IMG/VR virus record: IMGVR_UViG_2721755711_000005
Location: 1-13,169 of that record
Reading direction: 5' to 3' (one strand)
DNA length: 13,169 nucleotides
DNA from: a virus
Taxonomy: Duplodnaviria; Heunggongvirae; Uroviricota; Caudoviricetes
Positions 1 through 13,169 of the stretch are shown here, piece after piece; the first letter of the stretch is position 1, and the number at the start of each line of letters is the position of its first letter. Position numbers and translations under genes: made by a program. The notes below the pieces were generated by a model. It ran no database searches. It was not told where the DNA came from and worked only from the letters and a program-made list of their open reading frames with translations.

Positions 1-1242
1 ATGGCACGAAAAACCACCCCACTAACCATTACGGAGATCAAAAACGCACGGCCAGGGGAAAAGGAATACACCCTGCAGGATGGCGGAGGATTATTTCTTC
101 TGGTGAAGCCCTCCGGATCAAAAATCTGGCGTTTTACGTACTACCGTCCGGCAGATAAAAAACGGACTATTATCAGCCTTGGATCGCTGAATGATGTTTC
201 CCTGTCTGATGCCAGAGAGCGACGGAATGAATACAGGTCACTCATAGCAAAGGGAACTGACCCACAGGACCACGAACGCCGGAAACGTGAAGCAGAGAGC
301 CGGAAAAAGGGCAACACGTTCGAAAAAGTTGCCTCGGACTGGTACGAGATGAAAAAAGGCCAGAATCTGGCTTACAACACGATTAAGGATATCTGGCGAT
401 CCATGGAAAAATACGTATTCCCGTACATCGGAAACACGCCAATAGATACCCTCACCGCTCGCCGCTTTGTTGAGATACTCACCCCCATTAAGGCGCGTGG
501 CAACCTGGAAACCCTGAAACGCGTTTTACAGCGCATCAATGAGGTGATGGATTTTGCTGCCAACAGTGGTCTGATTGACATCAACACCGCCGCGAACGTC
601 CGCAAGGCATTCCCCTCACCCACCAAAAAGCACATGCCAACCATCCGACCGGAACAGCTACCACAGCTAATGCACGATTTATCGGTCGCCAGCATAGAAC
701 GGCAAACCAGATTGCTGATTGAGTGGCAGCTGCTGACCGTTGCACGCCCCGCCGAAGCAGCCGCCGCACGCTGGGAAGAAATAAACCTCGATGCCGAAAC
801 CTGGACGATTCCAGCCGGACGCATGAAGATGCGCCGTGACCATGTGATCCCCCTTTGCGGTCAGGCTATGGCTGTACTGGAAACCATGAAGCCAATCAGC
901 GCACACAGGGAACACGTTTTTCCCAGCCTTAAAAATCCGATGCTACCAATGAGCAGCCAGACCGCTAACGCTGCATTACGCCGGATGGGATACGCTGGTG
1001 TGCTGGTGTCTCACGGATTACGCGCCATATTCAGTACAGCAGCGAACGAGGAAGGATTCGAGCCGGACGTAATCGAGGCCGCACTCGCACACGTGGACAC
1101 GAACGAGGTAAGGCGAGCATATAACCGAAGTAACTACCTGGAAAAGCGCGTGGTGCTTATGCGCTGGTGGGGTGAATTTGTGGAAGCCGCAGCAACCGGA
1201 GTGACCATAGCCAGTGGTAAAAGGGGTATCCGTGCAGTGTAA
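1..1242 (+). CDS. int: Tyrosine-type site-specific integrase, P4/CP4-57 family, with N-terminal arm-binding domain
   Basis: 413-aa ORF. N-terminus (LTITEIKNARPGEKEYTLQDGGGLFLLVKPSGSKIWRFTYY) matches the DUF4102-type arm-binding domain of P4-like integrases. C-terminus carries catalytic-region motifs (HVIPLCGQA, SHGLRAIFST, RAYNRSNYLEKR with the candidate Tyr nucleophile). Window starts exactly at the ATG. Confidence 0.93.
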   Translation: MARKTTPLTITEIKNARPGEKEYTLQDGGGLFLLVKPSGSKIWRFTYYRPADKKRTIISLGSLNDVSLSDARERRNEYRSLIAKGTDPQDHERRKREAESRKKGNTFEKVASDWYEMKKGQNLAYNTIKDIWRSMEKYVFPYIGNTPIDTLTARRFVEILTPIKARGNLETLKRVLQRINEVMDFAANSGLIDINTAANVRKAFPSPTKKHMPTIRPEQLPQLMHDLSVASIERQTRLLIEWQLLTVARPAEAAAARWEEINLDAETWTIPAGRMKMRRDHVIPLCGQAMAVLETMKPISAHREHVFPSLKNPMLPMSSQTANAALRRMGYAGVLVSHGLRAIFSTAANEEGFEPDVIEAALAHVDTNEVRRAYNRSNYLEKRVVLMRWWGEFVEAAATGVTIASGKRGIRAV

Positions 1243-1343
1243 CTGTACAAAAAACCAGTACAACCAGTGCAAACCATGCTAAACCATCGTATAATCACCA
1301 CATACAGAGAGACCCGACTCTTGAAATTCAAGGAGTTATCCGA

Positions 1344-1586
1344 GTGTTTTTCAATGAAAAGGTATCCCCTGCCTATGGTGAAGGCCTTCAGTTGGCCTTA
1401 ATGGCAAATCGTGAATTCTGGTCAACGTACGATCCGGAAGACAAATCAACAGCCCCCACAAAACACGAGGTAGTCAGTTTTTTGCGCTCGCGTGGCGCAT
1501 CGAAAAATCTGGCTGAAAGCATCGACAAGGTGCTGAGACCCACCAGCCTTAAATGCGGTGGGCGACCTAAGAAGTGGAAGCGGTAA
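1344..1586 (+). CDS. Hypothetical small protein (80 aa), GTG start
   Basis: ORF with AGGAG at 1332-1336, 7 nt before the GTG, followed by a rho-independent terminator. No family recognised. Confidence 0.4.
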   Translation: MFFNEKVSPAYGEGLQLALMANREFWSTYDPEDKSTAPTKHEVVSFLRSRGASKNLAESIDKVLRPTSLKCGGRPKKWKR

Positions 1587-1591
1587 TCACA

Positions 1592-1621
1592 ATAGCGGCC
1601 CCTTGCGGTCGCTATTTTTTT
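1592..1621 (+). terminator. Rho-independent terminator
   Basis: Hairpin ATAGCGGCC / GGTCGCTAT with a 6-nt loop, followed by a run of 7 T. Confidence 0.6.
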
Positions 1622-1655
1622 GCAAAAAGAAAGCGTAATCAATGAGATAAAAAAC

Positions 1656-1692
1656 AGTGGGTACCGTTTTAAAACGGTGGGTACTGTTTTTC
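1656..1692. promoter_or_regulatory. Putative operator upstream of alpA: direct repeats flanking a 16-bp palindrome
   Basis: Two copies of GTGGGTAC(C/T)GTTTT at 1657-1670 and 1677-1690. A perfect palindrome ACCGTTTTAAAACGGT at 1663-1678 lies between them, about 65 bp upstream of the alpA start. Confidence 0.4.
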
Positions 1693-1755
1693 CCGCCCTG
1701 CCCTGTTTTACCGTATTTATCACCGGAATACGCCGGATTAATGAGGTAAAACACG

Positions 1756-1962
1756 ATGGAAGTAATCAGAAAAATTCTTACCCGTCAGGAAGTAAAAAAT
1801 ATTCTGCGCATCAAGGCAGACAGTTCGCTACAGGACATGATCAACGCCGGAAAATTCCCGAAAGGCTTCAAAATCGGTCTGCGTCGTGTTGGCTGGTATG
1901 AAGATGAGGTGCTGGCCTGGCTGAAAGAACGCGAGGAAGAAGCGCGCGGAACGGCTGCGTAA
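1756..1962 (+). CDS. alpA: AlpA-family (Phage_AlpA) transcriptional regulator / excisionase-like HTH protein
   Basis: 68 aa. ILTRQEVKNILRI...FPKGFKIGLRRVGWYEDEVLAWLKER matches the AlpA signature (helix-turn-helix followed by VGW-E-E---WL--R). GAGGT RBS 8 nt upstream. Position just after int is typical. Confidence 0.85.
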   Translation: MEVIRKILTRQEVKNILRIKADSSLQDMINAGKFPKGFKIGLRRVGWYEDEVLAWLKEREEEARGTAA

Positions 1963-2238
1963 TGGTGTGAGGCGTAACACAATGAACATAACAAAAAGCG
2001 CCCCATTGCCGGAGCGCCCTTGCGAACAATTAGCCTGCCGCACCAAAAATAAATATGTGCAGGGGAATTATATCAACCGTGTGGCGAAGCGCCACAATTG
2101 CCGGATAACGGGCAAAACAAAGGCGACCGCAAAGGGTCGCCAGTGGATATTACGGCAAATCAAACTTGAACGCATCGCCAACAATGCCACATTTGCGGCT
2201 GGTGAGCAATGTGATCAGCGTGCTGGTTTGCTGGTGGG

Positions 2239-2436
2239 CTATTCCTGCTCTTTAGCATCGCCATGCTGCGATGTTTTCCAGGTATGCGATCCCATTTTTG
2301 TGCGCCTGTACTCTTTAAGGAACTTCTCAAGGACAAACGCACATGGCGCGAATCTTTCCTGTTCATGTTCGCTTACCGCGTTTTTGCGTTGTTTTTTCCT
2401 GGATGAAGATAATTTCTTTAATGATTTGTCAGTCAT
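2239..2436 (-). CDS. Hypothetical small basic protein (65 aa), paralogous 3' end to neighbouring small gene
   Basis: Lys/Arg-rich ORF ending ...DAKEQE. Its last codons and stop share DNA identity with the 3' end of gene 2494-2673 (TCCTGCTCTTT core). Confidence 0.4.
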   Translation of the reverse strand: MTDKSLKKLSSSRKKQRKNAVSEHEQERFAPCAFVLEKFLKEYRRTKMGSHTWKTSQHGDAKEQE

Positions 2437-2493
2437 CGTAGATACCTGTAACCCTGTGCGCCACAGTTCACCGCACCACGGCGCTGGTGATGG

Positions 2494-2673
2494 TTACTCC
2501 TGCTCTTTGGCCTTGCGCCGCTGGCGGTACTCAACTTCTCGCTTTAATGCTGCTGTTACAAACTGCCCTGTACTTTCACCAGGCATTTTTACCGCCTCAA
2601 CATTGTTCATAACTTCATGCGGAACCCTTGCCGCAACTGTTTGTGATTTTGCGTTTACTGCTTTTGTCGCCAT
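2494..2673 (-). CDS. Small putative DNA-binding protein (59 aa from ATG 2673; possibly ribbon-helix-helix-like), candidate repressor
   Basis: ORF track starts at GTG 2682, but the in-frame ATG at 2673 has a GAGGGG RBS 8-9 nt upstream. Sequence MATKAVNAKSQTVAARVPHEVMNNVEAV...QFVTAALKREVEYRQRRKAKEQE has a beta-helix-helix-like pattern. Divergent from the operator at 2724-2775. Confidence 0.5.
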   Translation of the reverse strand: MATKAVNAKSQTVAARVPHEVMNNVEAVKMPGESTGQFVTAALKREVEYRQRRKAKEQE

Positions 2674-2723
2674 GTTGTGCACCCCTCACAAAAAACAAAT
2701 GCAGTATGCAGGAAAAAAAATAA

Positions 2724-2775
2724 GTGTTCAACACTTGACGTGTTTAACACCTAGATTTAAATTGGTGTTCAACAC
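2724..2775. promoter_or_regulatory. Operator: three 11-bp palindromes GTGTT(C/T)AACAC in a divergent promoter region
   Basis: GTGTTCAACAC at 2724-2734, GTGTTTAACAC at 2740-2750, GTGTTCAACAC at 2765-2775. TTGACG at 2735-2740 (-35-like) lies between sites 1 and 2; TAAATT at 2758-2763 is a possible -10 after a 17-bp spacer. Confidence 0.6.
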
Positions 2776-2872
2776 CTTATTAATGCAAGGTGCAGAAACG
2801 ACGAAACCCGGCAGTGCGCGAACACTAACCGGGCTTCTAACCACCAACGATAGCAAGATTATCGAGGTAGCT

Positions 2873-3235
2873 ATGAGAAATCATAACCAAACTAAACCCG
2901 AATTTATATACACCTTTACGGCGCTACACCGAGATCGCATGGCTGACGGCGCAACTACGGTACATGTAGCCGCTGACACGCTGGTTGATGCCAGCAGGAT
3001 GGTTAAAGAGATGGGCTACGTTGCGGCGTTCTGGAAAGGGCGCGAAGAAAACACGCTGTTTATTCAGAAATGCGAAAACAATTTTATCTGGCGTTTTATC
3101 GCCCTGAGCACGGCGCAACCGCGCATGATTACCATTGAGGCCACCAGCGAACAGGAAGCACGCCAGCAATCCCCGGCTGGCTGCGTGATGGTATTCGCCG
3201 CCCGTATTCGTCAGGGGGTGCACCATGTGCAATAA
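2873..3235 (+). CDS. Hypothetical protein (120 aa), first gene of plus-strand replication operon
   Basis: In-frame ATG at 2873 within the long ORF 1967-3235, with GAGGT 4 nt upstream. The upstream part of that ORF overlaps the two minus-strand genes and the operator, so only this 3' part is called. Confidence 0.45.
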   Translation: MRNHNQTKPEFIYTFTALHRDRMADGATTVHVAADTLVDASRMVKEMGYVAAFWKGREENTLFIQKCENNFIWRFIALSTAQPRMITIEATSEQEARQQSPAGCVMVFAARIRQGVHHVQ

Positions 3236-3455
3236 AAACACGCCGGACGCAGCAGGCGAAGCATTGAAAGTACTGATACATGCGCTTGTGGATATAAATT
3301 GCATGGTAGAGATCATGGAGAAGAAATCACAGTCGGAGTACGACAAAAGAAAATTTAAAACAATAAAAATAATTACCAAAAACTCACTGACAAAAGCTAC
3401 AGACATCCTCAATGAGGACACTAAAAGAATCAGGGAGAAACTGTGTGATGCATAA
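3225..3455 (+). CDS. Hypothetical small protein (76 aa), largely AT-rich
   Basis: ATG overlaps the stop of the upstream gene; AGGGGGTG RBS. Lys-rich product; the gene runs into a strongly AT-rich patch. Confidence 0.4.
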   Translation: MCNKNTPDAAGEALKVLIHALVDINCMVEIMEKKSQSEYDKRKFKTIKIITKNSLTKATDILNEDTKRIREKLCDA

Positions 3456-3675
3456 AATACCTTTTGATGTTCTTATTCATTCTGAAAACGCATTAATCCG
3501 CGCAAAGGAAATGGAGGCATTATTACTTAAGTTAATGGAAGTGCCGGAAAATGGCGATGAATCATATCCCATGATGTTTTCTGCCGTGCACACATTATTA
3601 ACGCCAGTAATTAACGAATTAAATACGGTGATGGCAATTCACGAGAATAATAAAGCGCATCACACCGGAGAATAA
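3448..3675 (+). CDS. Hypothetical small protein (75 aa from ATG 3448), AT-rich
   Basis: ORF track starts at 3412, but ATG 3448 has an AGGGAGAA RBS about 8 nt upstream and overlaps the stop of the preceding ORF by 8 nt (translational coupling). No family recognised. Confidence 0.45.
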   Translation: MHKIPFDVLIHSENALIRAKEMEALLLKLMEVPENGDESYPMMFSAVHTLLTPVINELNTVMAIHENNKAHHTGE

Positions 3676-3680
3676 AAACC

Positions 3681-3980
3681 ATGAAACAGAAAATTTCTGA
3701 CTTTACTGCCAGCGGCCTCCCTCGGTCTGAAATCCGCCCCGGCGATATTTTCCGGGATAACTACGGCGGCACGGTAACGATTAAACACGTGGCGGGACGG
3801 TGCGTTACTTACCGCCGTGATGGGTACGGCTATGACTGCGTGATGCCTGCTTATCAGTTCCGGCGTGATTTTTCCCTGGTACAGGCAGCGCAACGCAGTA
3901 AGCCCACCAGCAGGGAAAAAGCACGGGAAAATATTAAGAAAATAAAAAGCATGCTCAGCGCATCCAGAGGTAAAAAATGA
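3681..3980 (+). CDS. Hypothetical protein (99 aa)
   Basis: GGAG RBS upstream. Stop overlaps the start of the helicase gene (3977) by 4 nt. Confidence 0.5.
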   Translation: MKQKISDFTASGLPRSEIRPGDIFRDNYGGTVTIKHVAGRCVTYRRDGYGYDCVMPAYQFRRDFSLVQAAQRSKPTSREKARENIKKIKSMLSASRGKK

Positions 3981-5383
3981 AACTGGCACCGAACGTAAAA
4001 CTGTTACCGAAAGATAAACACACTGAGGCGGTTATTTTTGCGGGTGATAATGCTCACTCCTTTGCAGAACATTACATGATTGCACAGGCCAAAAAAGCAG
4101 GCGATCCCATCCCTCCGGTTTACCTGGGCCGTTATCAGTTAAGCGAACTGGACAACTTACAGATTGTTGATGAAGGACGATACAGAGCAAAGGTCATACG
4201 CGCCGGAAACCTGGACGATATGCAGATGCTGACCATTGCCACAAAACTGGCGATCGCCGGAGTCCAGGAGGCGCGGCTACTTTCTGAAAATTTCGAACTG
4301 CTGGAGAACTGGAGCGACCAACTACCACGACTACGGGAAACATGGGAGAGAGGGGAAAGCCTGGTCATGAATGGCAGAAAGCGAAAAATCACGCTTCCCA
4401 TCTCATGGGGTTCTGAGGGATTCGACGCGCAGCAAAGCTACGTAATTAAGGGGCTTATTCCGGCTGAATCATTATGCAGCACCTACGGCGCGAGTGGTTC
4501 CTATAAATCGTTCCTCGCCATTTCCTGGTCGTGCCATGTTGCCACAGGTATGGCATGGGGAGGCCGCAGGGTAAGTAAGGGCGCGGTTATCTATATCGCT
4601 GGTGAAGGCAGCATGGGCGTAAAACGCCGCGTAAAGGCGTGGGAGATAACCCACGACAAGGTGGTTACAGATTTGTGCATCATTAACGCGCCGGTATTCC
4701 CTGCATCGCCTGACTATGTGGAGCAGGTTATCAGGACTGCCGGACTTGTTAAGAGCAGAACGGGCGAAAATGTGCGGCTGATTGTGATCGACACGCTGGC
4801 CCGTTGCTTTGGTGGGAATGATGAAAATGATTCCCGTGATATGGGCGCATTTATCCAGGGGTGTGACGCGATAAAGCAGGCCACAGGGGCCACGGTGCTG
4901 GTGGTTCACCATTCCGGCAAGGATGAAACAAAGGGGGCGCGTGGTTCCAGCGCATTCCGTGCCGCGCTTGATGCAGAGTACCGAATCAGCCGGGAAAATT
5001 CAGACGTTACAGCACTGGTGGCGGCGTGTACGAAGATGAAGGACGCAGAGGAGCCAAAAGAAAGCGCATACGACCTTAAAAGCGTGGAGGTGTTCACCGA
5101 TACAGATGGCGAAGAGATTGTGTCTATGGTGGTGATTGACGTTCCCCGCGCCCCTGCTGAACTGGAACGCATCGAGGAGGCCGGGAACAAGACGGAGAAT
5201 CACGCCGCATTATGGCAGTGCATCAGAACGCGGACGGCACACGGGGAATCATGCACTATTGCCCTGCTGCGCGACGATATGAAAAAGCTGGGGTATGAGA
5301 TGAAGCACTTCCGGCGCTGGCTGTACAAGCTGGAAAAAGACGGCGTGATCACTATCGACGGCAATGACGTGCATCCACTGTAA
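3977..5383 (+). CDS. Replication protein with RecA-fold ATPase domain (AAA_25 / RepA-like helicase)
   Basis: 468 aa. Walker A YGASGSYKS, Walker B RLIVIDTLARCF, and a VLVVHHSGKDETKGARGSSA sensor region typical of RepA/DnaB-like AAA_25 ATPases. Immediately followed by an iteron array. Confidence 0.8.
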   Translation: MKLAPNVKLLPKDKHTEAVIFAGDNAHSFAEHYMIAQAKKAGDPIPPVYLGRYQLSELDNLQIVDEGRYRAKVIRAGNLDDMQMLTIATKLAIAGVQEARLLSENFELLENWSDQLPRLRETWERGESLVMNGRKRKITLPISWGSEGFDAQQSYVIKGLIPAESLCSTYGASGSYKSFLAISWSCHVATGMAWGGRRVSKGAVIYIAGEGSMGVKRRVKAWEITHDKVVTDLCIINAPVFPASPDYVEQVIRTAGLVKSRTGENVRLIVIDTLARCFGGNDENDSRDMGAFIQGCDAIKQATGATVLVVHHSGKDETKGARGSSAFRAALDAEYRISRENSDVTALVAACTKMKDAEEPKESAYDLKSVEVFTDTDGEEIVSMVVIDVPRAPAELERIEEAGNKTENHAALWQCIRTRTAHGESCTIALLRDDMKKLGYEMKHFRRWLYKLEKDGVITIDGNDVHPL

Positions 5384-5585
5384 AAGTGGGGGATAAAAGT
5401 GGGGATAGCGGGGAATTTAACAAAATTGAAACGCTATTCCCCACTTTCTGGCCTGTATACATCCAAAAAAGTGGGGAGTAAAAAATACAATGAAAAACAA
5501 AGAATTAGACTTACCCAAAAAACGAGGTGGGAAGCAAGTGGGAAATTTTAAAAGTGGGGAACAAAAGTGGGGGTAGTGGGGAATG
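5384..5585. repeat. Iteron array, putative satellite replication origin
   Basis: About 8 direct copies of AAAGTGGGGA-like units (5384-5395, 5395-5407, 5465-5478, 5524-5534, 5535-5545, 5549-5560, 5563-5573, 5574-5585) plus one inverted copy CCCCACTTT at 5439-5447, with AT-rich spacers, directly downstream of the helicase gene. Confidence 0.8.
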
Positions 5586-6356
5586 AATAAAGAAAATATG
5601 ACCTGTCAGGGGATGAGCTACAAAGAACGCGAAGCACTCAAGGCCTTTGCGGGGCAGTGTGAGAAGCACGGAGATATACAGAGCCTAACCAGAACGCTGG
5701 TCATGATTGCGCACTGGATGCGACAGAGCAAGGCGGTGAGTTTTACGGAATACGCCAGCCAGTGGACAGAGGCACAGCGTGAACGGAGCGACGGCAATCA
5801 CTCAACACCCGAAATGGCGAAGCAATGGCCTTTCAGTGGTAAACGGTGCATCAATCCGGGCGGATCTGATTATTACCCGTGCGGAACAGAAAAAGAGCGA
5901 CAGAATGATGAGGTGGAAATTAAACACGCAGTAACGGTAATTCTTGCCGCTTACCCATTTTTTAACCGCGATGGACTTGAACTGTACAGCCGTGATAAGG
6001 CATGGGTGCACCCACTTGATTATGCGCCCTTCATGGCGGAGGCGATGAGCTGTTTACGCTGGATAAGGGAGAACAACCTTACCGACTGTAAGATTGCATC
6101 ATTCCCTGGAAAAAATCCGACATCCTACGGCCTGAAACATTGTGTTGAGCGTGTGAATCAGAGAAGAGCTAAGGGCGACGGGCAACCAACAGAGCCGACA
6201 TACATCACAAACGGCGCATTAATCGCCGCAATGGTCGCATCGGGTTATCGGGTGAAGCGAACGGGAAGAATGAACTGCCTGTTTAATATCTCACACAAAC
6301 AGCTTAAGCGCGCACTGATGACAGGACCAGTAAAAACCGGAGAACAGACAGCATGA
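5583..6356 (+). CDS. Hypothetical protein (257 aa); start codon uncertain
   Basis: Long ORF whose stop overlaps the SSB start. Weak RBS at the first ATG; alternative in-frame starts at Met6 and Met11. No family recognised. Confidence 0.55.
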   Translation: MNKENMTCQGMSYKEREALKAFAGQCEKHGDIQSLTRTLVMIAHWMRQSKAVSFTEYASQWTEAQRERSDGNHSTPEMAKQWPFSGKRCINPGGSDYYPCGTEKERQNDEVEIKHAVTVILAAYPFFNRDGLELYSRDKAWVHPLDYAPFMAEAMSCLRWIRENNLTDCKIASFPGKNPTSYGLKHCVERVNQRRAKGDGQPTEPTYITNGALIAAMVASGYRVKRTGRMNCLFNISHKQLKRALMTGPVKTGEQTA

Positions 6357-6775
6357 CAGCACAGATAGCGGCTTACGGGCGGCTGGTGGCTGACCCGCAG
6401 TTAAAGACCACCAGCAAAGGGACACAAATGGCGATGGCGAGTATGGCGGTTCCCCTGCCGTGCAGCCAGGCAGATGACGGAACGGCGACGATGTGGTTAT
6501 CCGTCCTGGCGTTTGGCAGACAGGCCGACGCACTGGCCAGACACCACAAAGGCGAACTGGTGAGCGTGGCGGGTAACATGCAGGTAAGCCAGTGGACAGG
6601 CCAGAACGGCGAAACGCGGCAGGGCTGGCAGGTTATCGCAGACAGCGTAATCAGTGCGCGAACGGCGCGACCGGGCGGCAAAAAAGGTCAACAGGGCCAG
6701 GCTACTGACGCGCTGAACAGGGCAAAACAACAGGCGGGTAATGATGATCCGTACGGGGACAACATACCGTTTTAA
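6353..6775 (+). CDS. ssb: Single-stranded DNA-binding protein (short SSB)
   Basis: 140 aa. N-terminal OB-fold-like region (AAYGRLVADPQLKTT...), Gly/Gln-rich linker and an acidic C-terminal tail DDPYGDNIPF resembling the canonical SSB tip DDDIPF. Confidence 0.8.
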   Translation: MTAQIAAYGRLVADPQLKTTSKGTQMAMASMAVPLPCSQADDGTATMWLSVLAFGRQADALARHHKGELVSVAGNMQVSQWTGQNGETRQGWQVIADSVISARTARPGGKKGQQGQATDALNRAKQQAGNDDPYGDNIPF

Positions 6776-6811
6776 TTCACAACAGCGAACAGAGTTATTA
6801 CAGGGGAAAGC

Positions 6812-7336
6812 ATGACAAAGCTGACCATTAACCGAAAACCGAAAGGCATTTACGGCACGCTGCAGAAAACGACGCAGGCGATACAGCAGCAGGATAAAAC
6901 CACATCGGCGCATAAAGTGATACCCGGCAATCAGAACGCACAGCAGAAGCCCACAGGGGCGACACCGTGGCGGCATATGACCAAACGCCAGCGCAAAAAC
7001 CGCAGACGCGTTAATCGCCTCACTGAGATGTGGCCTGACTTATTCAGCCGGGAAGCGCCAAAACCGCTGAAGGTGGGGATATTCGACGACCTTATGCAGG
7101 ATATCGCCGTCAGGGGGCTGGCATTCGGGCCGGGGGCATTACGTGCGACGCTGGCATCTTATACGCAGTCTCCGCGCTATTACCGCGCCTTAATGGCTGG
7201 TGGGGTACGCTACGACCTGAAAGGCCAGCCATATGGGGAGGTTACACCACAGGAACAGCAGGAGGCAGAAACGCGGCTGATGGCACTGAATGAGAAGCGC
7301 AAACGCCGGGCAGCAAAGGAGAAGACGGGCACGTGA
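6812..7336 (+). CDS. ProQ/FinO-domain RNA-binding protein
   Basis: 174 aa. PLKVGIFDDLMQDIAVRG...LRATLASYTQSPRYYRALMAGGVRYDLKGQPYGEV aligns with the ProQ N-terminal FinO-like domain (PLKIGIFQDL...[35 protein letters not shown]). Basic C-terminal tail. Confidence 0.8.
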   Translation: MTKLTINRKPKGIYGTLQKTTQAIQQQDKTTSAHKVIPGNQNAQQKPTGATPWRHMTKRQRKNRRRVNRLTEMWPDLFSREAPKPLKVGIFDDLMQDIAVRGLAFGPGALRATLASYTQSPRYYRALMAGGVRYDLKGQPYGEVTPQEQQEAETRLMALNEKRKRRAAKEKTGT

Positions 7337-7608
7337 TTCACGACAGCAAAGCGGAAGAACTGGAGGCTAAAGGGCTGTACCGAAGAGCGGCGGCGCGGTG
7401 GGCTGAGGTTATGCAACTGGTGAACACCGATAAGGAGCGCGAACAGGCGGCAAAGCGTCGCGCGGAATGTATCCGTAAGGCAGCACGCTCACCCGTTATG
7501 GCGGATAACTTCGGGGCGCTGAAAGAGGCTGTAAACCGCACTCATGCGGTGATGGGGATGGAAGACGCGGGTAAATCCGTCTGGCGGAACTACCCGAAGC
7601 AGCCCTGA
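7333..7608 (+). CDS. PerC/Pch-family transcriptional activator-like protein, GTG start
   Basis: 91 aa. KAEELEAKGLYRRAAARWAEVM...EREQAAKRRAECIRKA...AVNRTHAVMG matches my recollection of the PerC/Pch signature (LE-GL-RRAA-W--VM...RR--C...NRT). AAGGAG 11 nt upstream; overlaps the stop of the ProQ-like gene. Confidence 0.65.
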   Translation: MIHDSKAEELEAKGLYRRAAARWAEVMQLVNTDKEREQAAKRRAECIRKAARSPVMADNFGALKEAVNRTHAVMGMEDAGKSVWRNYPKQP

Positions 7609-7705
7609 CAGTAACCAGTGATGCCGGATATTATCCTGAAAAATGGCCATCACTCCCGTGGGCGGATAACATAAAATCCCGCATATGCGCACATACACAG
7701 ACGAA

Positions 7706-7728
7706 GCCGGAACACTCCGGCTTTTTTT
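7706..7728 (+). terminator. Rho-independent terminator ending the replication operon
   Basis: GCCGGA-ACAC-TCCGGC hairpin followed by a run of 7 T. Confidence 0.75.
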
Positions 7729-7805
7729 ACGGGTCCTCCTGATGGGGTACCCTTACCGCGGGGCGACGGACGCGCGGAAAACGGCTAATTTTTGAATTTT
7801 TATCG
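7722..7805 (+). repeat. cos-like element A (cosQ-like plus degenerate cosN-like), paired in inverted orientation with 12515-12595
   Basis: TTTACGGGTCCTCC...CGCGGGGCGACGGACGCGCGGAAAACGGCTAATTTTTGAATTTTT resembles the bona fide cos at 8548-8640. Its reverse complement recurs at about 90% identity at 12515-12595. Confidence 0.6.
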
Positions 7806-8074
7806 GTCATCACCACCAGCGCAATTTATTGATAATGAAGGTTAAAAAAATTCCTGGTGTCGAAAACGCCTGTTTTTTGTTCACCACTGAATCATGCCGC
7901 ATCACGATAACCCACAAGGCTGGTGGTGATGCGTTATGCTCCCTACGTTGCCATCCTCCTGACCTCATGGCATTATCCGGCGTGAACGAGCGGTTATTCT
8001 CCGTACTCTTAATCGTTGTTCATGGTTATTTGCTTTGTGGTAGCTTACATTTCCTGATGGTTATTATCCTTCCA

Positions 8075-8098
8075 CCCCGTAATCACGGGGTTTTTTTT
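8075..8098 (+). terminator. Rho-independent terminator in the non-coding region upstream of cos
   Basis: CCCCG-TAATCA-CGGGG hairpin followed by a run of 8 T. Lies inside the compositionally implausible ORF 7829-8167. Confidence 0.55.
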
Positions 8099-8547
8099 GT
8101 CTGCGATTTGCCGTTCTCCGTTGCGCTGGTGGTAACGTCACGACATGTCACCATCACGTCACGCTGATGGCGAAAGTCAGGGTTAACCAGTACCGGAACG
8201 GGTAGCCCGATGTACTGTTACCGTTCTGCTGGCTGGTGGAGTAATTGATAACGGTTATCATCAACGGGAGGGGTGGATCAAATCCCTGTAGTCCTGGCTG
8301 TCAGGGACCGCCGCCCAACCCTTCTTCACATCGCCGCAGGTTCGAAAACTTTTTTTTGGGAAGGTGCGCACAGACTTGATAGATAAAACCTATCAGACAA
8401 AACCACGCCAACCCCGCGCCATTGCTGGCATCGTTAAAAAAACTCACTCCACCAGCAGGCTAAAAAACCGTGATTTTTCCGGTTTTATGGGCTGAAAAGG
8501 GGCTCCCTAAAAAACACCTCTTACACTGCCGGACAGGAGCGGTGGCT

Positions 8548-8770
8548 TTTCACGGGTCCTTTCCGGGGATCTGAAACACCACGGGGCGGCAGACGCGCAG
8601 ATTTTCACTATTTATGAAAATTTTTCAGGGAAAAAGCATGTCGGTACTTCTTGCATGTAACATTATGTTTTTATTGCAACTAACTATCATAAACATACGA
8701 CACCATAACGCCGGAAAATCCCGTTTTTCAGGCGTTTCATGTCGGAGGTGGTTTTTGATGAGGATTTGAT
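8548..8770 (+). other. cos: Lambda-type cos site: cosQ-like (8548-8583), cosN (about 8584-8595), cosB (8596-8770)
   Basis: TTTCACGGGTCCTTTCCGGGGATCTGAAACACCACG|GGGCGGCAGACG|CGCAGATTTTCACTATTTATGAAAATTTTTC closely parallels the phage lambda cos junction as I recall it (...TTTACGGGTCCTTTCCGGTGATCCGACAGGTTACG|GGGCGGCGACCT|CGCGGGTTTTCGCTATTTATGAAAATTTTCC), and sits immediately upstream of a Nu1-like gene exactly as in lambda. Confidence 0.85.
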
Positions 8771-8772
8771 AA

Positions 8773-9357
8773 ATGAATGTTAACAAAAAGAGACTGGCGG
8801 AGATTTTCGGTGTTGATCCGCGCACAATTGAGCGCTGGCAGATGCAAGGGCTTCCCCATGTATCTGGTGGCGGAAAAGGTGTGGAGGTGACTTTCGACTC
8901 TACACAGGTGATCGAATGGTATGTACAGAGGGAGAAGGAGATCGAAAACGAAAAACTCCGCAGGGAGCTTGATGATTTACGTGCTGCTGGTGAATCAGAT
9001 TTACAGCCAGGCACAACAGAGTACGAACGCTACCGTCTCACCAAAGCACAGGCGGACGGGCAGGAACTGAAGAACGCCAGAGAGACAGGGGAAGTTATAG
9101 ATACTGAGTTCGTACTCTGTGCGCTTCGTGGACTGGCGAGTCAGATTTCTTCGATCATGGATAGTTTGCCGCTCACAATGCAAAGGCAGTTCCCCGGGAT
9201 GACTCCGGCAATGCTCGATGGCCTGAGGAAGGAAACAGCACGAGCCTGTAATGCGTGCGCTAAAACTGCCGATAACCTACCCCGCATTCTGGAAGACTAT
9301 CTGATGGAAACAACCGGAAACGTGCCGGAGAAGTTACGGCAACAGAAAGGTGAGTGA
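8773..9357 (+). CDS. Nu1-like small terminase subunit homologue (satellite packaging-redirection protein, Rpp-like)
   Basis: 194 aa, collinear with lambda Nu1 along its whole length: [28 protein letters not shown]...[12 protein letters not shown]...[11 protein letters not shown]...[28 protein letters not shown] versus Nu1 MEVNKKQLADIFGASIRTIQNWQEQGMP...GGGKGNEVLYDS...[11 protein letters not shown]...[28 protein letters not shown]. No large terminase gene follows. Confidence 0.9.
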
Positions 9358-9383: not shown

Positions 9384-9442
9384 AAGAAAGGATCTGATAA
9401 CGTTATTTTTGGCCCAAAATGACCACTGTCAGATCCTTTCTT
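9384..9442 (+). terminator. Perfect 14-bp inverted repeat hairpin after terS (possible terminator or protein-binding site)
   Basis: AAGAAAGGATCTGA (9384-9397) and TCAGATCCTTTCTT (9429-9442) with a 31-nt loop, followed by TTTTTCTG. The loop is unusually large for an intrinsic terminator. Confidence 0.4.
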
Positions 9443-9494
9443 TTTCTGATGATTTTACGATTAAACAATGAGTTACAGAGAAGAAGAACGGATC

Positions 9495-9586
9495 TGACTT
9501 TTCCCGAAAAATTTTCATAAACAGTTAAGAATTGCGCGTATCCGTACCCCCGGCGCTCAAGATTCTGGAAAGGACCCGTGACACCT
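9495..9586 (-). repeat. cos-like element D, inverted copy of the cos region, downstream of terS
   Basis: Reverse complement reads GTGTCACGGGTCCTTTCCAGAATCTTGAGCGCCGGGGGTACGGATACGCGCAATTCTTAACTGTTTATGAAAATTTTTCGGGAAAAG, which parallels cos 8548-8632 in its cosQ core, its GC-rich centre and its TTTATGAAAATTTTTC block (roughly 75% by eye). Confidence 0.6.
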
Positions 9587-9618: not shown

Positions 9619-9867
9619 TTACGCATCTTTAAAACTGGGTTTGCCATTAGCTAAACGCCAGGTTTTAACTTCTTGTACGATGGCTTCCGGGCTATCGTCT
9701 TTTCCGTTCTCTGGATAAAAAATTAGATCAGAGCCTGATGGATGTTCAGAGAGGCGCCTGAATTCTCTGACTAACTGCTCGCTTTCTTTTTCTGTTCCTT
9801 CTGCATTACATATTTTTCGAACAAGATCTAAGAATTCATTTTCAGTATAGTCGTTTATTGTTTTCAC
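9619..9867 (-). CDS. Colicin/pyocin DNase immunity protein (Im7/Im9 family)
   Basis: 82 aa, GTG start. [82 protein letters not shown] aligns along its full length with Im9 (...[79 protein letters not shown]). One nt separates it from the toxin stop. Confidence 0.92.
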
Positions 9868-9868
9868 G

Positions 9869-11560
9869 TTATTTTCCCCTGTGAATTTCTATATGCCGCT
9901 TTGGTGTTGTGATACCCATATTATCAACGTTATAAACTTCGCCCCCCTCACTTATAGGTTTAATATGGTGTATCTCGTAACGTTCCCTCCCACCAACTCG
10001 ATCCACTTCCCTTGTGAATGGTGAACGTCCTTTGCGAATGTTCGTGAGGTTGTGTGCTCTGAACTGTCTTGACAAATCAGCATCGTTTGCCACTTCTGCC
10101 CAAAATGCCTCCCTGAATCGATCAAAATTCGCAAATGTTCGCCCACGCATCCGCTCCGCAATCTGGCTGGGTACTGGTGCACCATTTCCCTTATCGGCAT
10201 CCACCAGCCACGCCCCGCTAATTTTTTGTCCTTTCCCTGTTACCTGCCCGGCGTTATTCCTGATGTAAATATAAATCGGCGGTATATCCGGGAATGGCAG
10301 GATCAGAATGTAATCCGCAAAATCCTTTTCTTCCGGGGCCGGGCTGGTTGTGGCGTGTAATCCCGTGTCATCCGGTAACGGGTCCACCATCACCGGATTC
10401 GGCAGCACTGGCGGGTACTGATTTCCCGTGTGGTACGGTACATCAATCCCCGGATTATCCGGCGTCCAGATGAGTGTGATACGCGGGTCTTCCTCCGTGG
10501 TGAACGTGTACGCCTTTCGTCTGTCGTCCCACTCCATCCGGCGCACGCGCACCCTGTCCTGTCCCGGTGGCGTGTGCCAGCCATGCGGCACGGGGTTCCC
10601 CCGGCTGTTCGTCTCCCAAGTAAAGCGAACACGGGTAGGCACTTCCCTGACCTGTTCGGCCCTCATACGGTCGATAAAATCCTGCTCCCCGTCATTCAGC
10701 CGGCCGGGCATCATCCCTATCAGAAACGCCGCCAGTGGCAGCCCCGCAACCCCGGTCGCGGTTTCGCCCACGACGGCCCACGTTCCCCGGATGGCAAAAT
10801 TTCCCGCCACCGGACGCAGAACGCTCGCCCCGGCAATTGCCGCTCTGGCCCGTTGTGCGCGCTCCGCTTCCTCAACCGCACGCTGATAATCCATTTCCTC
10901 GTGATGGCCGTTCCACCATTTCCACAGTGCACTGCGTTTCTTCGGCTTCGGAATATCCTCCGGCGCAATCAGTTTTTTCTTTTTGACCGCCTGTGCACGC
11001 TGCGGGGCTTCCGTGTCTGTCACCGGGTCAGTCTGCGGAACGGCCTGATAAATCCCCATCGGTGCAAAGTTGGTATGCGGCTCCCGCTGGTCGCCCGCGT
11101 CGTTGCATCCCGCACCGCGCAGACAGGATTTTGCAAACACCCGGTTACGTTCCCGTTCTTCCTCCCGGCGTTTTTCTTCAGCTTCCCGTTCTGCCCTGCG
11201 TTGTGCTATCAGTTCCGCCTGTTTTTTCTGTGCAATTTCTGCCGGCGACGGCCCCGCCCCCATCCACTGACCGAGCGGGGCAATAATCCGGTTTGAACCT
11301 TCAGGGCAGCCACAGTGAACAACACAGCCATCAACGGCAATGGGAATATCTATCACCTTAAAACGGGCTTCTCCTTCTGCCACCATGCCGGGCTTTCCGC
11401 ACGCCGGGCAGGGAGTGGTTTTGTCTCCCTTACGAATAAGACCGTTACCACAGACGTTGTAGTTAGGGACAGGAAGGGAAGTAATCAGCCATGCGCCGGT
11501 GGTGGTTTTGTCACAGGAAAGCGCCATTCCCCTGCCGTGTATATCCGGTCTGTATGTCAT
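9869..11560 (-). CDS. Polymorphic toxin: Cys-rich N-terminal domain, charged linker, central domain of unknown function, C-terminal colicin E9-type HNH DNase
   Basis: 563 aa. The C-terminal ~130 aa ([49 protein letters not shown]...[55 protein letters not shown]) align with the colicin E9 DNase domain, including the HNH motif. N-terminus has multiple Cys ([16 protein letters not shown]). GGAG RBS 8 nt upstream; ATGA overlap with the upstream gene. Confidence 0.9.
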
Positions 11561-12045
11561 GGCTTACACTCCGGCACCAGAAAATCCGCTGGCATACTTT
11601 CGCCTTCACGACAACAAAGTAACGTTATTCGCTGCGGCGTACTGATAATCTCATCCCCGTTATCCAGTTGGCTGCCAACCAGAGCATACCCTTTTCCGTG
11701 ACAACTGAACGCACTGCCGGAACCGCTGATAATACGGGCCGTAGTGCCGTCCTGATACGTCACCTCATCCCCGACCATCGCCATTTCTGCCATCTCTCCG
11801 GTGCTGTCAGCGACTTCGCAGCCGGAACTGGCGGAAGACACCACCCCGCCATTACGGGTAAGGCTACCGGTAGTGGCATGTCGCCAGATAGCCACAATCG
11901 GATGTTGACGGCAAAATTCCTCCTGCTCCCTGATTATCGCCAGCGCATCATCGGACATATCAGCAAGCGCTTCCTCTGTGAAAGGGGATTTATCCAGTTC
12001 TGCCAGTACATCGGCGGTCAGTTCGTTGGTATATTGCTTCATCAT
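11557..12045 (-). CDS. Hypothetical protein (162 aa) co-transcribed with the toxin: acidic helical N-terminus, Gly/Ser-rich C-terminal half, Cys cluster; candidate PAAR-like partner, adaptor or chaperone
   Basis: First gene of the minus-strand operon, translationally coupled to the toxin by an ATGA overlap. C-terminal half AMVGDEVTYQDGTTARIISGSGSAFSCHGKGYALVGSQLDNGDEII is loosely reminiscent of PAAR-type repeats; ends with LLCCREGES...PECKP. Confidence 0.6.
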   Translation of the reverse strand: MMKQYTNELTADVLAELDKSPFTEEALADMSDDALAIIREQEEFCRQHPIVAIWRHATTGSLTRNGGVVSSASSGCEVADSTGEMAEMAMVGDEVTYQDGTTARIISGSGSAFSCHGKGYALVGSQLDNGDEIISTPQRITLLCCREGESMPADFLVPECKP

Positions 12046-12514
12046 GTTTCTGTTTTTCCTGTGGTTAACAATCGACCAGAATCATAATGAAAGGGAATGC
12101 AAAAAAATTGATGGATATCAAAATGAAAAATAAAATCATCCCGGTAAAACAGGATATCTACCCCACCAGCATCCCTGGATTTTCAGATAGTTGCTTTTAG
12201 CCTCTGAACAACATCTGCTGGTGGCTGATAATTACAATAATTCCTGCCCCCTGGCGTTTCTGAGCATGTTTACCGCGAATTTTGCGCAAAACACCTTAAC
12301 AATTCTTAAATTTTAAAAACACTTCAGTGATAAGCATCACCGCTCCCGCTCACATTTGACACAGGCAACTCCATCTGGCAGGTGAAAATCAAATTTATTT
12401 ATATATTTCAATTGATTGTAAACTGGTCTAATGACAGGGGAGAAAAAAGACTGTACAGGTGAAAACAGAAATAATTCTTAATTATCAATGAATTATCACA
12501 CATGCTGCCGCCGC

Positions 12515-12595
12515 CATGAAAATGCAAAAACTAGCCGTTTTCTGCGCATCCGTCGCCCCGCGGTAAGGGGCACCCCACCGGGAGGACCCACGACG
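12515..12595 (-). repeat. cos-like element C, inverted partner of element A (7722-7805)
   Basis: Reverse complement CGTGGGTCCTCCCGGTGGGGTGCCCCTTACCGCGGGGCGACGGATGCGCAGAAAACGGCTAGTTTTTGCATTTTC matches 7726-7805 at about 90% by eye. Confidence 0.6.
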
Positions 12596-12884: not shown

Positions 12885-13169
12885 ATGACCGAAGCCGAAA
12901 TGCTCAAAATGATTCGCCGTGCTGCCGGAATCAGCCAGGCAGCAGGCAAACAGGAGGCCACGCAACCGGACAGCGTGATAGCCGAAAATTACGCGCGTGT
13001 GGTGGCTGATGTGATGCGCCGTGACGGTATCGAGCTTAACGGCGTGGATATGCGCGATATACGAACCAGAGTTCTCGAGTTGCTGGCATGTCGTCGCCGT
13101 TCTCAGCAACGGAGGGAGAGCGCGAAAAATACTTACCAGTGGAAGAAGCCGGAGCGGTTACGGCGGTAG
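12885..13169 (+). CDS. Hypothetical protein, 3'-truncated by the window end
   Basis: The ORF runs to the window edge. GGAGG at 12872-12876 is 8 nt upstream of the ATG at 12885 (the ORF track starts at 12855 with no RBS). No family recognised. Confidence 0.4.
   Translation: MTEAEMLKMIRRAAGISQAAGKQEATQPDSVIAENYARVVADVMRRDGIELNGVDMRDIRTRVLELLACRRRSQQRRESAKNTYQWKKPERLRR

Follow-up and report, generated by a model that had tools for sequence, protein, structure and literature searches.

A probable phage-inducible chromosomal island of Escherichia coli with an orphan Nu1-type small terminase and five predicted cos sites

Cohesive-end (cos) packaging of phage-inducible chromosomal islands (PICIs) in Escherichia coli has been studied in EcCICFT073, whose packaging by phages lambda and phi80 via cos was shown experimentally (PMC6092414, PMC6739421; Fillol-Salom et al. 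2018, 2019). This island has two functional cos sites and is packaged in full-size capsids (PMC6092414). The protein Rpp, discovered in EcCICFT073, acts via heterodimers with the small terminase subunit, TerS (PMC6739421), and the islands that carry it lack the R elements of phages (PMC6739421, PMC9026076). Some Gram-negative PICIs carry a terS homologue, which was noted and not dissected (PMC6092414), and terS was a PICI core marker in the SatelliteFinder study (PMC10085698). Here we describe a 13,169-nt stretch of DNA (IMG/VR record IMGVR_UViG_2721755711_000005, hereafter the window), in which a full-length Nu1-type terS stands without the large terminase gene (terL) among five predicted cos elements. 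The element is probably a PICI with its own integration, regulation and replication functions that is packaged via helper terminases, helper dependence and cos function being read from sequence comparison.

Two strategies described in Staphylococcus aureus pathogenicity islands (SaPIs) offer close parallels. The pac-type SaPIs with their own TerS (SaPI1, SaPIbov1; PMC6092414) likewise have TerS without TerL and are presumed to pair it with the helper TerL and so to steer packaging towards a recognition site of their own, but they use headful (pac) packaging, live in Gram-positive hosts and show no sequence relation to the window TerS, a Nu1 homologue of the cos type that goes with an R3-I1-R2-R1 site. 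The cos SaPIs such as SaPIbov5 (Quiles-Puchalt 2014, Carpena 2016; PMC5052747, PMC6092414) mimic the cos of the helper without any satellite terminase subunit; they resemble the window in their dependence on HNH-type cos phages and in having more than one packaging signal per satellite, and differ from it in being Gram-positive and in combining one cos with one pac (two cos in SaPIbov4) rather than five cos from three terminase families.

The window reads as the body of a 14.1-kb E. coli PICI related to EcCICFT073 (EcCI family). Public copies were located through an exact look-up of the TerS protein in public assemblies, and the same island, with 99.1-99.6% DNA identity over the whole window, was found on at least eight independent public contigs. 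Comparison with the empty, unoccupied att site of K-12 gave an island of 14,109 bp with the 10-bp att core CTCTCGTGCC at both ends, 223 bp upstream of window position 1 and at ~13887, the window being without approximately the first 223 bp and the last 720 bp. The insertion point is the 3′ end of tRNA-Pro (proL), between yejM/lapC and yejO; the public copies are flanked by yejM/lapC and tRNA-Pro(GGG) on the left and by yejO, narP and ccmH on the right, and in one of them (L006) tRNA-Pro(GGG) and attL lie ~210-290 bp upstream of the window. The island thus has the integrase and specific att site that characterize PICIs, together with their size of about one-third of a helper genome (criteria of PMC6092414), at 14.1 kb against 39-48 kb in the matching phages, and it also has the Gram-negative PICI layout, with int, alpA and rep all on the plus strand and a predicted origin directly 3′ of rep, the position in which PICI origins sit relative to the initiator gene (PMC6092414). 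No terL, portal or capsid gene was found in the window, in the island or in the 10-kb flanks of eight public contigs, and searches with Pfam, PHROG and NCBIfam revealed no phage structural or lysis genes among the ~20 open reading frames (ORFs) scanned. In no complete E. coli genome did a single location cover more than 59% of the window, and the island family was absent from a species-representative genome collection searched by contig with TerS and then with alignment A1.

Much of this had been anticipated by the original prediction, made from the letters of the window alone. It had listed a satellite backbone of int, alpA, helicase, iterons, ssb, cos and terS, each of which was found at or near the position given; it had held that adjoining terL, portal and capsid genes would mark the packaging end of a full prophage, and the flanks proved to be chromosomal in all eight contigs; and its Nu1-like terS without terL was borne out by the profile match and by the absence of terL from the window and its 10-kb flanks. 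Its reading as a Gram-negative cos PICI gained support from the synteny with EcCICFT073 and from the lack of virion genes nearby. The extent of 1-9357 was too short, the island running for 14,109 bp from att core to att core.

The proposed comparison with EcCICFT073 showed a collinear gene order with patchy DNA identity of 67-96%. Both islands run int, alpA, YlcI (minus strand), icd-like, DUF4222, rep, a hypothetical gene, ssb, PerC, packaging region and 94-aa ORF; both have a lambda-like cosQ-cosN directly upstream of a packaging-specificity gene and an inverted cos directly downstream of it, lack terL and amount to about one-third of a lambdoid genome. Because this order matches that of a characterized island, the satellite reading is supported and the kind of element is already known, namely a terS-bearing sub-type of the EcCICFT073 family. 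Nevertheless, EcCICFT073 differs in several respects: it is integrated near roxA/phoQ, encodes, at the position of the window's RepA helicase, a 'DNA primase family' protein, carries capsid and decoration homologues that are absent from the window, and has RppA (144 aa) in the slot of the window TerS. Moreover, it has the canonical cosN GGGCGGCGACCT at both cos sites and no recognizable R elements (PMC6739421), whereas the window has a phage-21-type cosB, a variant cosN, three more cos elements and a bacteriocin cargo. The CFT073 genome also holds a resident lambda-like prophage at icd (L031 29714-30480; NC_004431.1 ~1424714), ~36 kb from EcCICFT073, whose cos equals that of phage 21 over 67 nt from cosQ, canonical cosN included; this prophage may be the 'phage 4' helper of PMC6092414.

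The packaging region of the island is centred on terS. The encoded protein of 194 aa covers positions 1-162 of the 164 of the Phage_Nu1 profile, which places it in that family, and matches the structures of lambda TerS 1-98 (PDB 6hn7_B, E 6.6e-39) and 1j9i (E 2.1e-23). In tblastn comparisons covering 91-93% of the protein, its identity was 69.6% with PhiR5_1 Nu1, 60.8% with gp1 of phage 21 and 52.8% with Nu1 of lambda. The recognition helix of the winged helix-turn-helix (HTH) at the N-terminus reads RTIERWQ, as in phage 21 gp1, where lambda has RTIQNWQ; the central and C-terminal (TerL-binding) regions are present, the C-terminal third being the most diverged. TerS is 93-95% conserved among islands and shows no frameshifts there, and island-type full-length terS occurs in 23 of 5,426 complete E. 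coli genomes. There is no Rpp in the window: the slot in which Rpp-type cos PICIs have a protein of 144-153 aa (PMC6739421) holds a full Nu1-type TerS, to which RppC (6hlk) matched only over the HTH at E 0.012, and RppA only over 30 HTH residues at 37% identity. The search of the species-representative collection with alignment A1 gave lambda-type prophages and also lambda-type nu1 genes with 52-53% identity to the query, situated at or close to contig ends or on ~48.4-kb contigs (L269-L295). The latter assemblies bear titles such as Kitasatospora, Paenibacillus, Bradyrhizobium, Shewanella and Pseudomonas, which looks like contamination of public genomes by lambda control DNA.

Directly upstream of terS, the element cos-C was aligned to the phage 21 record, and a column-by-column comparison with phage 21 and lambda-type prophage cos revealed all parts of the lambda family (cosQ, cosN, R3-I1-R2-R1 and terS). 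Its cosQ CGGGTCCT lies at 8553-8560 and its cosN GGGCGGCAGACG at 8584-8595, nicking positions being taken from the alignment; the distance from cosQ to cosN is 30 nt, the same as in lambda and phage 21. These are followed by R3 at ~8634-8649, an A+T-rich I1-like stretch, an inverted R2 at ~8693-8710 and R1 at ~8733-8749. The I2-like spacer TATTTATGAAAATTTTT is conserved between cos-C and phage 21, R1 reads TTCATGTCGG in both, and R3 is GCATGTCGGTACTT in cos-C against GTGTCGGTACTT in phage 21, with the core TGTCGGTACTT in common. The R core TGTCGG points to a cosB specificity like that of phage 21 and not like that of lambda, and the start codon of terS lies at +190 from the first cosN base, compared with +189 in phage 21. 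Rpp-type cos sites have no phage-type R elements (PMC6739421), whereas cos-C has R3, R2 and R1 at the phage 21 positions. Because R elements, RTIERWQ helix and ATG distance all match phage 21 (OL657228.1), cos-C and TerS can be read as a complete cognate pair of phage-21 specificity, although TerS is 61% identical to that of phage 21 overall and only in phage 21 does terL follow. The cosN quoted in the original prediction was thus found in place, 30 nt past cosQ, and its description as a lambda-type cos stands for the spacing, but not for the phage-21-like cosB, nor for the single site expected, as five cos elements were found.

Of the four further elements, two emerged when the non-coding stretch was searched by blastn against 50,697 phage records (a 2.3-Gb phage database), and the two inverted ones in a self-comparison of the window. 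The 1.16 kb between PerC and terS, in which there is no credible ORF, gave three separate phage-like patches, cos-A, cos-B and cos-C, all direct and on the plus strand; after terS follow cos-C' and cos-A', both inverted on the minus strand, in the order A, B, C, terS, C', cargo, A'. Each extra element matches the segment directly upstream of terS in a different phage group (E 1e-20, 6e-30, 3e-31 and 3e-90). The spacers 7880-8245 and 8390-8552 had no phage match, and therefore the phage-like patches are exactly the cos modules.

In cos-A, the cosQ-like CGGGTCCT at 7730 and the cosN-like GGGCGACGGACG at 7761-7772 keep the lambda spacing and are followed by TCACCAC repeats. In the phages that match, this segment ends ~32 bp before a terS of the DUF1441 family, behind which comes a gpA-like terL; the island has no terS cognate to cos-A. 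cos-B corresponds to the whole intergenic region between the HNH gene and terS of phage phi467, whose TerS is a Terminase_4 protein, and has GGATCAAATC...ACCGCCGCC in common with HK97, at the physical right end of that genome; neither a cognate terS nor an HNH gene was found for it in the island. Abutting the stop codon of terS, cos-C' also follows the lambda-family plan with a different R core: cosQ CGGGTCCT runs from 9578 on the minus strand, the cosN is divergent, and three R-like elements that share the core CAGATCC(G/T)TTCTT are arranged as R3', I1, R2' (inverted) and R1', with no gene behind them. Its best phage match lies upstream of a nu1-like gene in the SerU-LTIIb prophage (75.1%, E 3e-31), the match to the lambda cosB region being weaker (72.3%), and it is nearly identical in every sister island examined. 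A reading of 9472-9581 as a decayed relic was rejected, the element being a full cos with three R-like elements conserved across islands. A 59-bp imperfect palindrome at 9384-9442, 78% self-complementary, lies in cos-C' between R2' and R1' and corresponds to the inverted R-element pair. Finally, cos-A' matches positions 13-249 of the cdtI and Tritos genomes; the cdtI record begins at the cohesive end, with cosQ ahead of it across the circular junction. It has cosQ GGGTCCT from 12589, a cosN-like GGGCGACGGATG at 12558-12547 and two TTTTCACCTG repeats from 12465 and 12388 (all minus strand), and its core is 88% identical to cos-A in self-comparison. Its identity to phages cdtI, Tritos and HannyBb is 87-90%, and the match to cdtI takes in the two TTTTCACCTG repeats as well as the opening 16 codons of orf1; in cdtI, terS and terL lie behind cos, whereas the window has a truncated terS, with no further DUF1441 coding sequence, and a colicin-like cargo.

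Comparison with sister islands illustrated how this region may have evolved. In two of them, L028 and L030, the mirrored cassette is the same except that an intact DUF1441 terS stands in place of the toxin operon (5845-6354 and 5976-6485, respectively), paired with cos-A' and 60% identical to mEp460 TerS. These islands have two convergent small terminases of different families: the DUF1441 type goes with a cdtI-like cos, the Nu1 type with the array of three cos. The TerS proteins of mEp460-, cdtI- and 1720a-02-type phages belong to DUF1441 (PF07278), a family whose function is nominally unknown; the possibility that the sister-island proteins were Rpp was rejected, as they gave no RppC match in PDB and were 53-60% identical to the TerS of mEp460 and 1720a-02. 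The whole cassette is inverted relative to PerC in L028 and L030 and otherwise rearranged in L001, and L029 and about nine complete genomes have kept the array and lost terS except for its last 62 bp. Coverage of the three-cos array reached ≥80% in 15 complete E. coli genomes and ≥79% in ~25, with 87-92% identity and in some cases without terS. From the comparisons among L028, L030, L001, L029 and the complete genomes, we conclude that the cassette recombines at inverted cos cores, that the cargo occupies a former terS slot, and that cos sites are retained even without a cognate island TerS.

The cosN sequences were compared after anchoring on cosQ and on the right-hand CGC. The 12-mers of the island, GGGCGACGGACG in A, GGGCGACGGATG in A' and GGGCGGCAGACG in C, are identical to one another at 9-11 of 12 positions, while those of A and A' are identical at only 6-8 of 12 to their counterparts in the DUF1441 phages mEp460, cdtI and 1720a-02. 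That of cos-C shares 8 of 12 with the canonical phage 21/lambda cosN GGGCGGCGACCT, from which its right half differs, and that of cos-A' differs from the cdtI genome end at 6 of 12. This likeness could reflect either gene conversion that homogenized the cores or selection of a satellite-specific cohesive end. In IMG/VR, a 15-nt cosN pattern gave mostly chance matches and became usable after filtering for an upstream cosQ. The canonical cosN 18-mer occurred on at least 80 contigs, 45 of 80 among the matches listed being longer than 20 kb; the contrast between these phage-sized contigs and the satellite-sized contigs of the variant is indicative only.

Taken together, these observations are consistent with the following mechanism. 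A helper prophage or an infecting phage would activate alpA, leading to excision of the island, replication from the iteron origin and formation of concatemers. The N-terminal winged helix of the island TerS would then bind the phage-21-type R elements of cos-C, and its C-terminal domain would recruit the gpA-type TerL of a lambdoid helper, the C-terminal third of lambda TerS being known to bind TerL (PMC9026076), with the result that the island cosN is nicked and its DNA enters helper capsids. Packaging would probably proceed as trimers, as 3 x 14.1 = 42.3 kb is near the sizes of the phage 21 (42.9 kb) and mEp460 (44.5 kb) genomes and would fit their capsids. The island TerS would also lower helper packaging, either through sequestration of TerL or because it mixes with the TerS of the helper. 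The other four cos would need no island protein, as they mimic the complete cos of phages with DUF1441 TerS (mEp460, cdtI), of HNH-dependent HK97-like phages (phi467) and of a further lambdoid type (SerU-LTIIb), whose terminases would package the island directly, as cos phages package SaPIbov5. Cleavage of the variant cosN by a lambda-like terminase is plausible, and the presence of five cos from at least three terminase families suggests that several kinds of helper phage can spread the satellite. More tentatively, at odds that we place below even, the region may be a helper-range cassette, in which five complete cos form a mirrored and invertible battery. Their sources would be at least three terminase systems unrelated to one another (gpA with Nu1, gpA with DUF1441 and the HK97 type, which depends on HNH), cosN would have been homogenized to a satellite-specific GGGCG-N3-GA(C/T)G unlike that of any helper, and cargo would be exchanged between inverted cos.

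Several observations weigh against this account. Between the cosN of the island and those of the corresponding phages, 3-6 of 12 positions differ, most of them in the right half; two 18-mers with the C-type cosN were found on 10 IMG/VR contigs, all ≤13.7 kb; and the variant cosN with an upstream cosQ occurred on no phage-sized IMG/VR contig, with no helper with matching ends found there. The C-terminal region of TerS is only loosely like that of phage 21 and closest to PhiR5_1, which bears on the choice of TerL partner, and a terminator-like hairpin 3′ of perC and upstream of terS bears on the route by which terS is transcribed. Because trimers of 42.3 kb are larger than the HK97 (39.7 kb) and phi467 (38.6 kb) genomes, the use of cos-B may need dimers or be inefficient. 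Lastly, the high conservation of the array among close islands fits function and recent common descent alike.

An alternative view is that cos-A, cos-B, cos-C' and cos-A' are non-functional recombination scars and that only cos-C with terS, or nothing, is used, a reading that we regard as rather unlikely. The region is recombinogenic, with the cassette in both orientations, terS deletions and a DUF1441 terS cut to 16 codons; the cosN cores look homogenized in the island, as gene conversion between repeats would give; and deletion of cos2 from EcCICFT073 raised transfer, slightly with phi80 and significantly with lambda (PMC6092414). On the other hand, deletion of both EcCICFT073 cos abolished transfer and both were judged functional in the same study. 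Scars would hardly be expected to keep a full cos each, from cosQ and cosN through R-type repeats to the former terS start, rather than a fragment, and to keep only the cos segments and not the neighbouring phage DNA; moreover, the array persists in ~25 complete genomes, and cos-C' hardly varies among islands whose other parts differ by 10-25%. It could also be argued that TerS is mainly an interference protein which, like Rpp, forms mixed oligomers with helper Nu1-type TerS and thereby poisons helper packaging. TerS does occupy the rppA position of EcCICFT073, is 53-70% identical to helper-type TerS across the dimerization and oligomerization regions, and Rpp acts through TerS heterodimers (PMC6739421). 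Nonetheless, Rpp is a protein of 144-153 aa without the TerL-binding tail, whereas TerS keeps the full Nu1 architecture to position 162 of 164 and its gene has the canonical spacing from a cosB with R elements that fit its type of recognition helix, which makes a mainly interfering role improbable, although interference and cos recognition are not mutually exclusive.

The remaining alternatives concern the nature of the element itself. A cos followed by a nu1-like terS is what the left end of lambda-like genomes looks like, and a cryptic lambdoid prophage decayed to its packaging end could be envisaged in place of a satellite. This is very improbable, given that the 14.1 kb and their flanks hold no gene or pseudogene for terL, portal, capsid, tail or lysis, that a P4-type integrase, alpA, a RepA helicase and iterons are not lambdoid functions, and that the island has precise att borders, is 99% identical in at least eight independent contigs and is collinear with a proven satellite. 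An even smaller chance is given to a P4-like satellite or a capsid-forming PICI in place of a classical one, an idea favoured by relatives at the same att site that carry DUF927 (P4 alpha-like) primases, Icd-like and Ash-like genes, and in some cases a major capsid and a decoration gene. In the present island, the capsid and decoration genes of these relatives are replaced by ProQ/FinO, and none of the marks of a capsid-forming PICI (terL, portal, protease, major capsid, head-tail connector) is present. Similarly, of the P4 hallmarks sid, psu, delta, the DUF927/D5 alpha protein and a P2-type cos, none was detected among the ORFs scanned, and all cos are of lambda or HK97 type. The statement of the original prediction that the element is not P4-type accordingly agrees with the ORFs scanned, none of which encodes a Sid-, Psu- or Delta-like protein, a remote Sid or Psu homologue being possible in the small unassigned ORFs. 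The preferred reading thus remains that of a PICI packaged by helper terminases, and the features on which it is based are collected in Table 1.

Table 1. Features of the 13,169-nt window, ordered by position
Feature	Position	Strand	Evidence
Tyrosine integrase with P4-type arm-binding N-terminus	1..1242	+	PF00589, PF22022, PF13356 (Phage_integrase, Arm-DNA-bind_3)
Small ORF	1344-1586	+	six-frame ORF scan
AlpA-family regulator/excisionase	1756..1962	+	PF05930, E 4.5e-08; position matches HTH regulator of EcCICFT073
YlcI/YnfO-family small protein, divergent from replication operon	2494..2682	-	NF041551, 59.5 bits (cut-off 30)
Icd-like/repressor-like protein, 187 aa in public copies	2672..3235	+	PHROG 6196, 1743; 'Icd-like' in relatives; L003 gene call
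DUF4222 protein, directly upstream of replication gene as in EcCICFT073	3681..3980	+	PF13973, 82 bits; synteny
Replication initiator/helicase, RepA-family AAA_25 ATPase	3977..5383	+	PF13481, 147.8 bits; PHROG 2850 full length
Putative iteron-type replication origin, directly 3′ of rep	5384..5584		8 AAGTGGGG-like repeats
Conserved 257-aa protein, function unassigned	5583..6356	+	called in all public copies; weak PHROG 9576 match
Single-strand DNA-binding protein (ssb)	6353..6775	+	PF00436, 58.3 bits
ProQ/FinO-family RNA-binding protein	6812..7336	+	PF04352, 85.5 bits
PerC-family transcriptional activator	7333..7608	+	PF06069, 123.8 bits
cos-A, lambda-like, mEp460/1720a-02/CP-1639 type	7730..7890	+	blastn patch 7724-7889, 73-76%, E down to 1e-20
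Conserved block, candidate small RNA	7879..8100	+	conservation profile and intrinsic terminator
cos-B, HK97-family cos	8243..8393	+	blastn to phi467, 81%, E 6e-30
cos-C, complete phage-21-type cos	8553..8772	+	alignment to phage 21 record; blastn 74-76%, E 4e-38 to 9e-28
Orphan full-length Nu1-family TerS, 194 aa	8773..9357	+	PF07471 (Phage_Nu1), 227.7 bits (cut-off 30)
cos-C', second complete lambda-family cos, abutting terS stop codon	9358..9585	-	self-similarity to cos-C, 74%
Colicin-E2/E9-type immunity protein	9619..9867	-	PF01320, 115.3 bits; Im2 (PDB 2no8), E 1.1e-30
563-aa toxin, S-type pyocin domain and C-terminal colicin-E2-like HNH DNase	9869..11560	-	PF21431, 177.2 bits; PF06958, 104.1 bits
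162-aa PAAR-domain protein, 4-nt overlap with toxin gene start	11557..12045	-	PF05488, 29.2 bits (cut-off 27); PHROG 25132
DUF1441-type terS remnant, first 16 codons MELPVSNVSGSGDAYH then stop	12324..12374	-	alignment to start of cdtI orf1
cos-A', complete cdtI/Tritos/HannyBb-type cos, inverted	12375..12592	-	blastn 86.8-89.9%, E 3e-90 to 1e-82
Conserved 94-aa terminal ORF of island family; island runs ~720 bp further to attR	12885..13169	+	PHROG 1561, 166.9 bits

The cargo of the island is a three-gene operon (9619-12045, minus strand) bracketed by the inverted cos-C' and cos-A'. The 563-aa toxin matched the colicin E2 DNase at E 6e-49 and klebicin G at E 4.7e-49, with an N-terminal PAAR-like region below the cut-off, and the product of the operon could be either a secreted bacteriocin or an effector of the type VI secretion system. 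PADLOC gave no defence-system match. In the sister island L029, the same slot holds a different S-type pyocin/PAAR pair and a DUF6392 gene. Another candidate product of this region is a small RNA of ~115 nt, which may be specified by the conserved block between cos-A and cos-B in an island that encodes a ProQ/FinO RNA chaperone. This block is 93-100% conserved among islands otherwise 75-90% similar (79% in the 30-nt sub-window 7939-7968). It contains a promoter-like site (7948-7976) and ends in an intrinsic terminator (8074-8091) with a T-run, and its fold z is only -1.98; it had no phage match and no Rfam match, Rfam giving nothing in the whole cos region.

The replication module is formed by rep, by the putative origin that starts one base past its stop codon, and by ssb. 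Residues 150-390 of Rep gave helicase-primase PHROG matches and relatives are annotated as 'helicase RepA family'; the AAA_25/RepA-helicase part alone was detected, with no primase domain found by Pfam or PHROG. The 8-mer AAGTGGGG occurs exactly six times in the 13-kb window, against ~0.4 exact copies expected by chance, and every one of the six falls within 5384-5572; two further copies with one mismatch lie inside the cluster, and the repeats occur in both orientations flanking an A+T-rich centre. No Pfam or NCBIfam match was obtained for the 257-aa protein encoded next, and at the far end of the window the 94-aa terminal ORF has 76% DNA identity to the last ORF of EcCICFT073. Upstream of rep, three small ORFs lie between the Icd-like gene and the DUF4222 gene, and a 422-aa ORF (1967-3235) of the mechanical list was rejected as a gene, being split in public gene calls. 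Next to YlcI/YnfO, within the divergent regulatory region, a sub-threshold Rfam match to the SymR antitoxin RNA (2800-2872, minus strand; 33.3 bits, the gathering score being 61; E 0.0038) is probably due to chance. A self-complementary 20-bp unit, AAAACAGTGGGTACCGTTTT, is repeated twice in tandem at 1650-1691, 65 bp upstream of alpA, and is likely an operator for the island regulator or for a helper-encoded inducer.

Additional features were observed at the island ends in L006. The attL (1006-1025) restores an intact 3′ end of tRNA-Pro (...CTCTCGTGCCGACCA), and the attR (15115-15130) is without GACCA, reading CTCTCGTGCC followed by AAAAATCCC, which recalls the damage to attR tRNA fragments reported for PICIs (PMC10111431). 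Just inside both ends, TAGCTA(C/T)ACG motifs are repeated (1139-1225 and 15028-15060), among them the 16-bp direct repeat TTTTTAGCTACACGTT; these repeats are probably arm-type binding sites of the integrase.

PICIs move virulence, defence and competition genes among enterobacteria, and their helper range sets the reach of the cargo. In the only E. coli cos PICIs that have been dissected mechanistically, Rpp retargets the TerS of lambda or phi80. The present island points to a second route, a complete satellite TerS with its own phage-21-type cosB, as the cos counterpart of the SaPI TerS strategy, and to another route, the plain mimicry of the cos sites of several helpers. Two features appear to be undescribed in the open-access literature searched: the combination, in a backbone like that of EcCICFT073, of a full Nu1-type TerS and a complete phage-21-type cosB, and the derivation of a five-cos battery from three terminase systems, with a cosN of the satellite type. 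If the helper-range cassette is real, a single 14-kb satellite would be packaged by several distinct temperate E. coli phage families, and if its cosN were homogenized, the satellite ends (the variants GGGCGGCAGACG and GGGCGACGGA(C/T)G) would be mutually compatible whichever helper cuts them and incompatible with helper DNA. Should the five sites work, the helper range could be read directly from the cos repertoire of a satellite, and the island would be a natural test bed for the tolerance of gpA-type and HNH-type terminases to an altered cosN. Moreover, the island gives an example of a DNase bacteriocin-type toxin that travels, together with its immunity gene, within the packaging module of a phage satellite.

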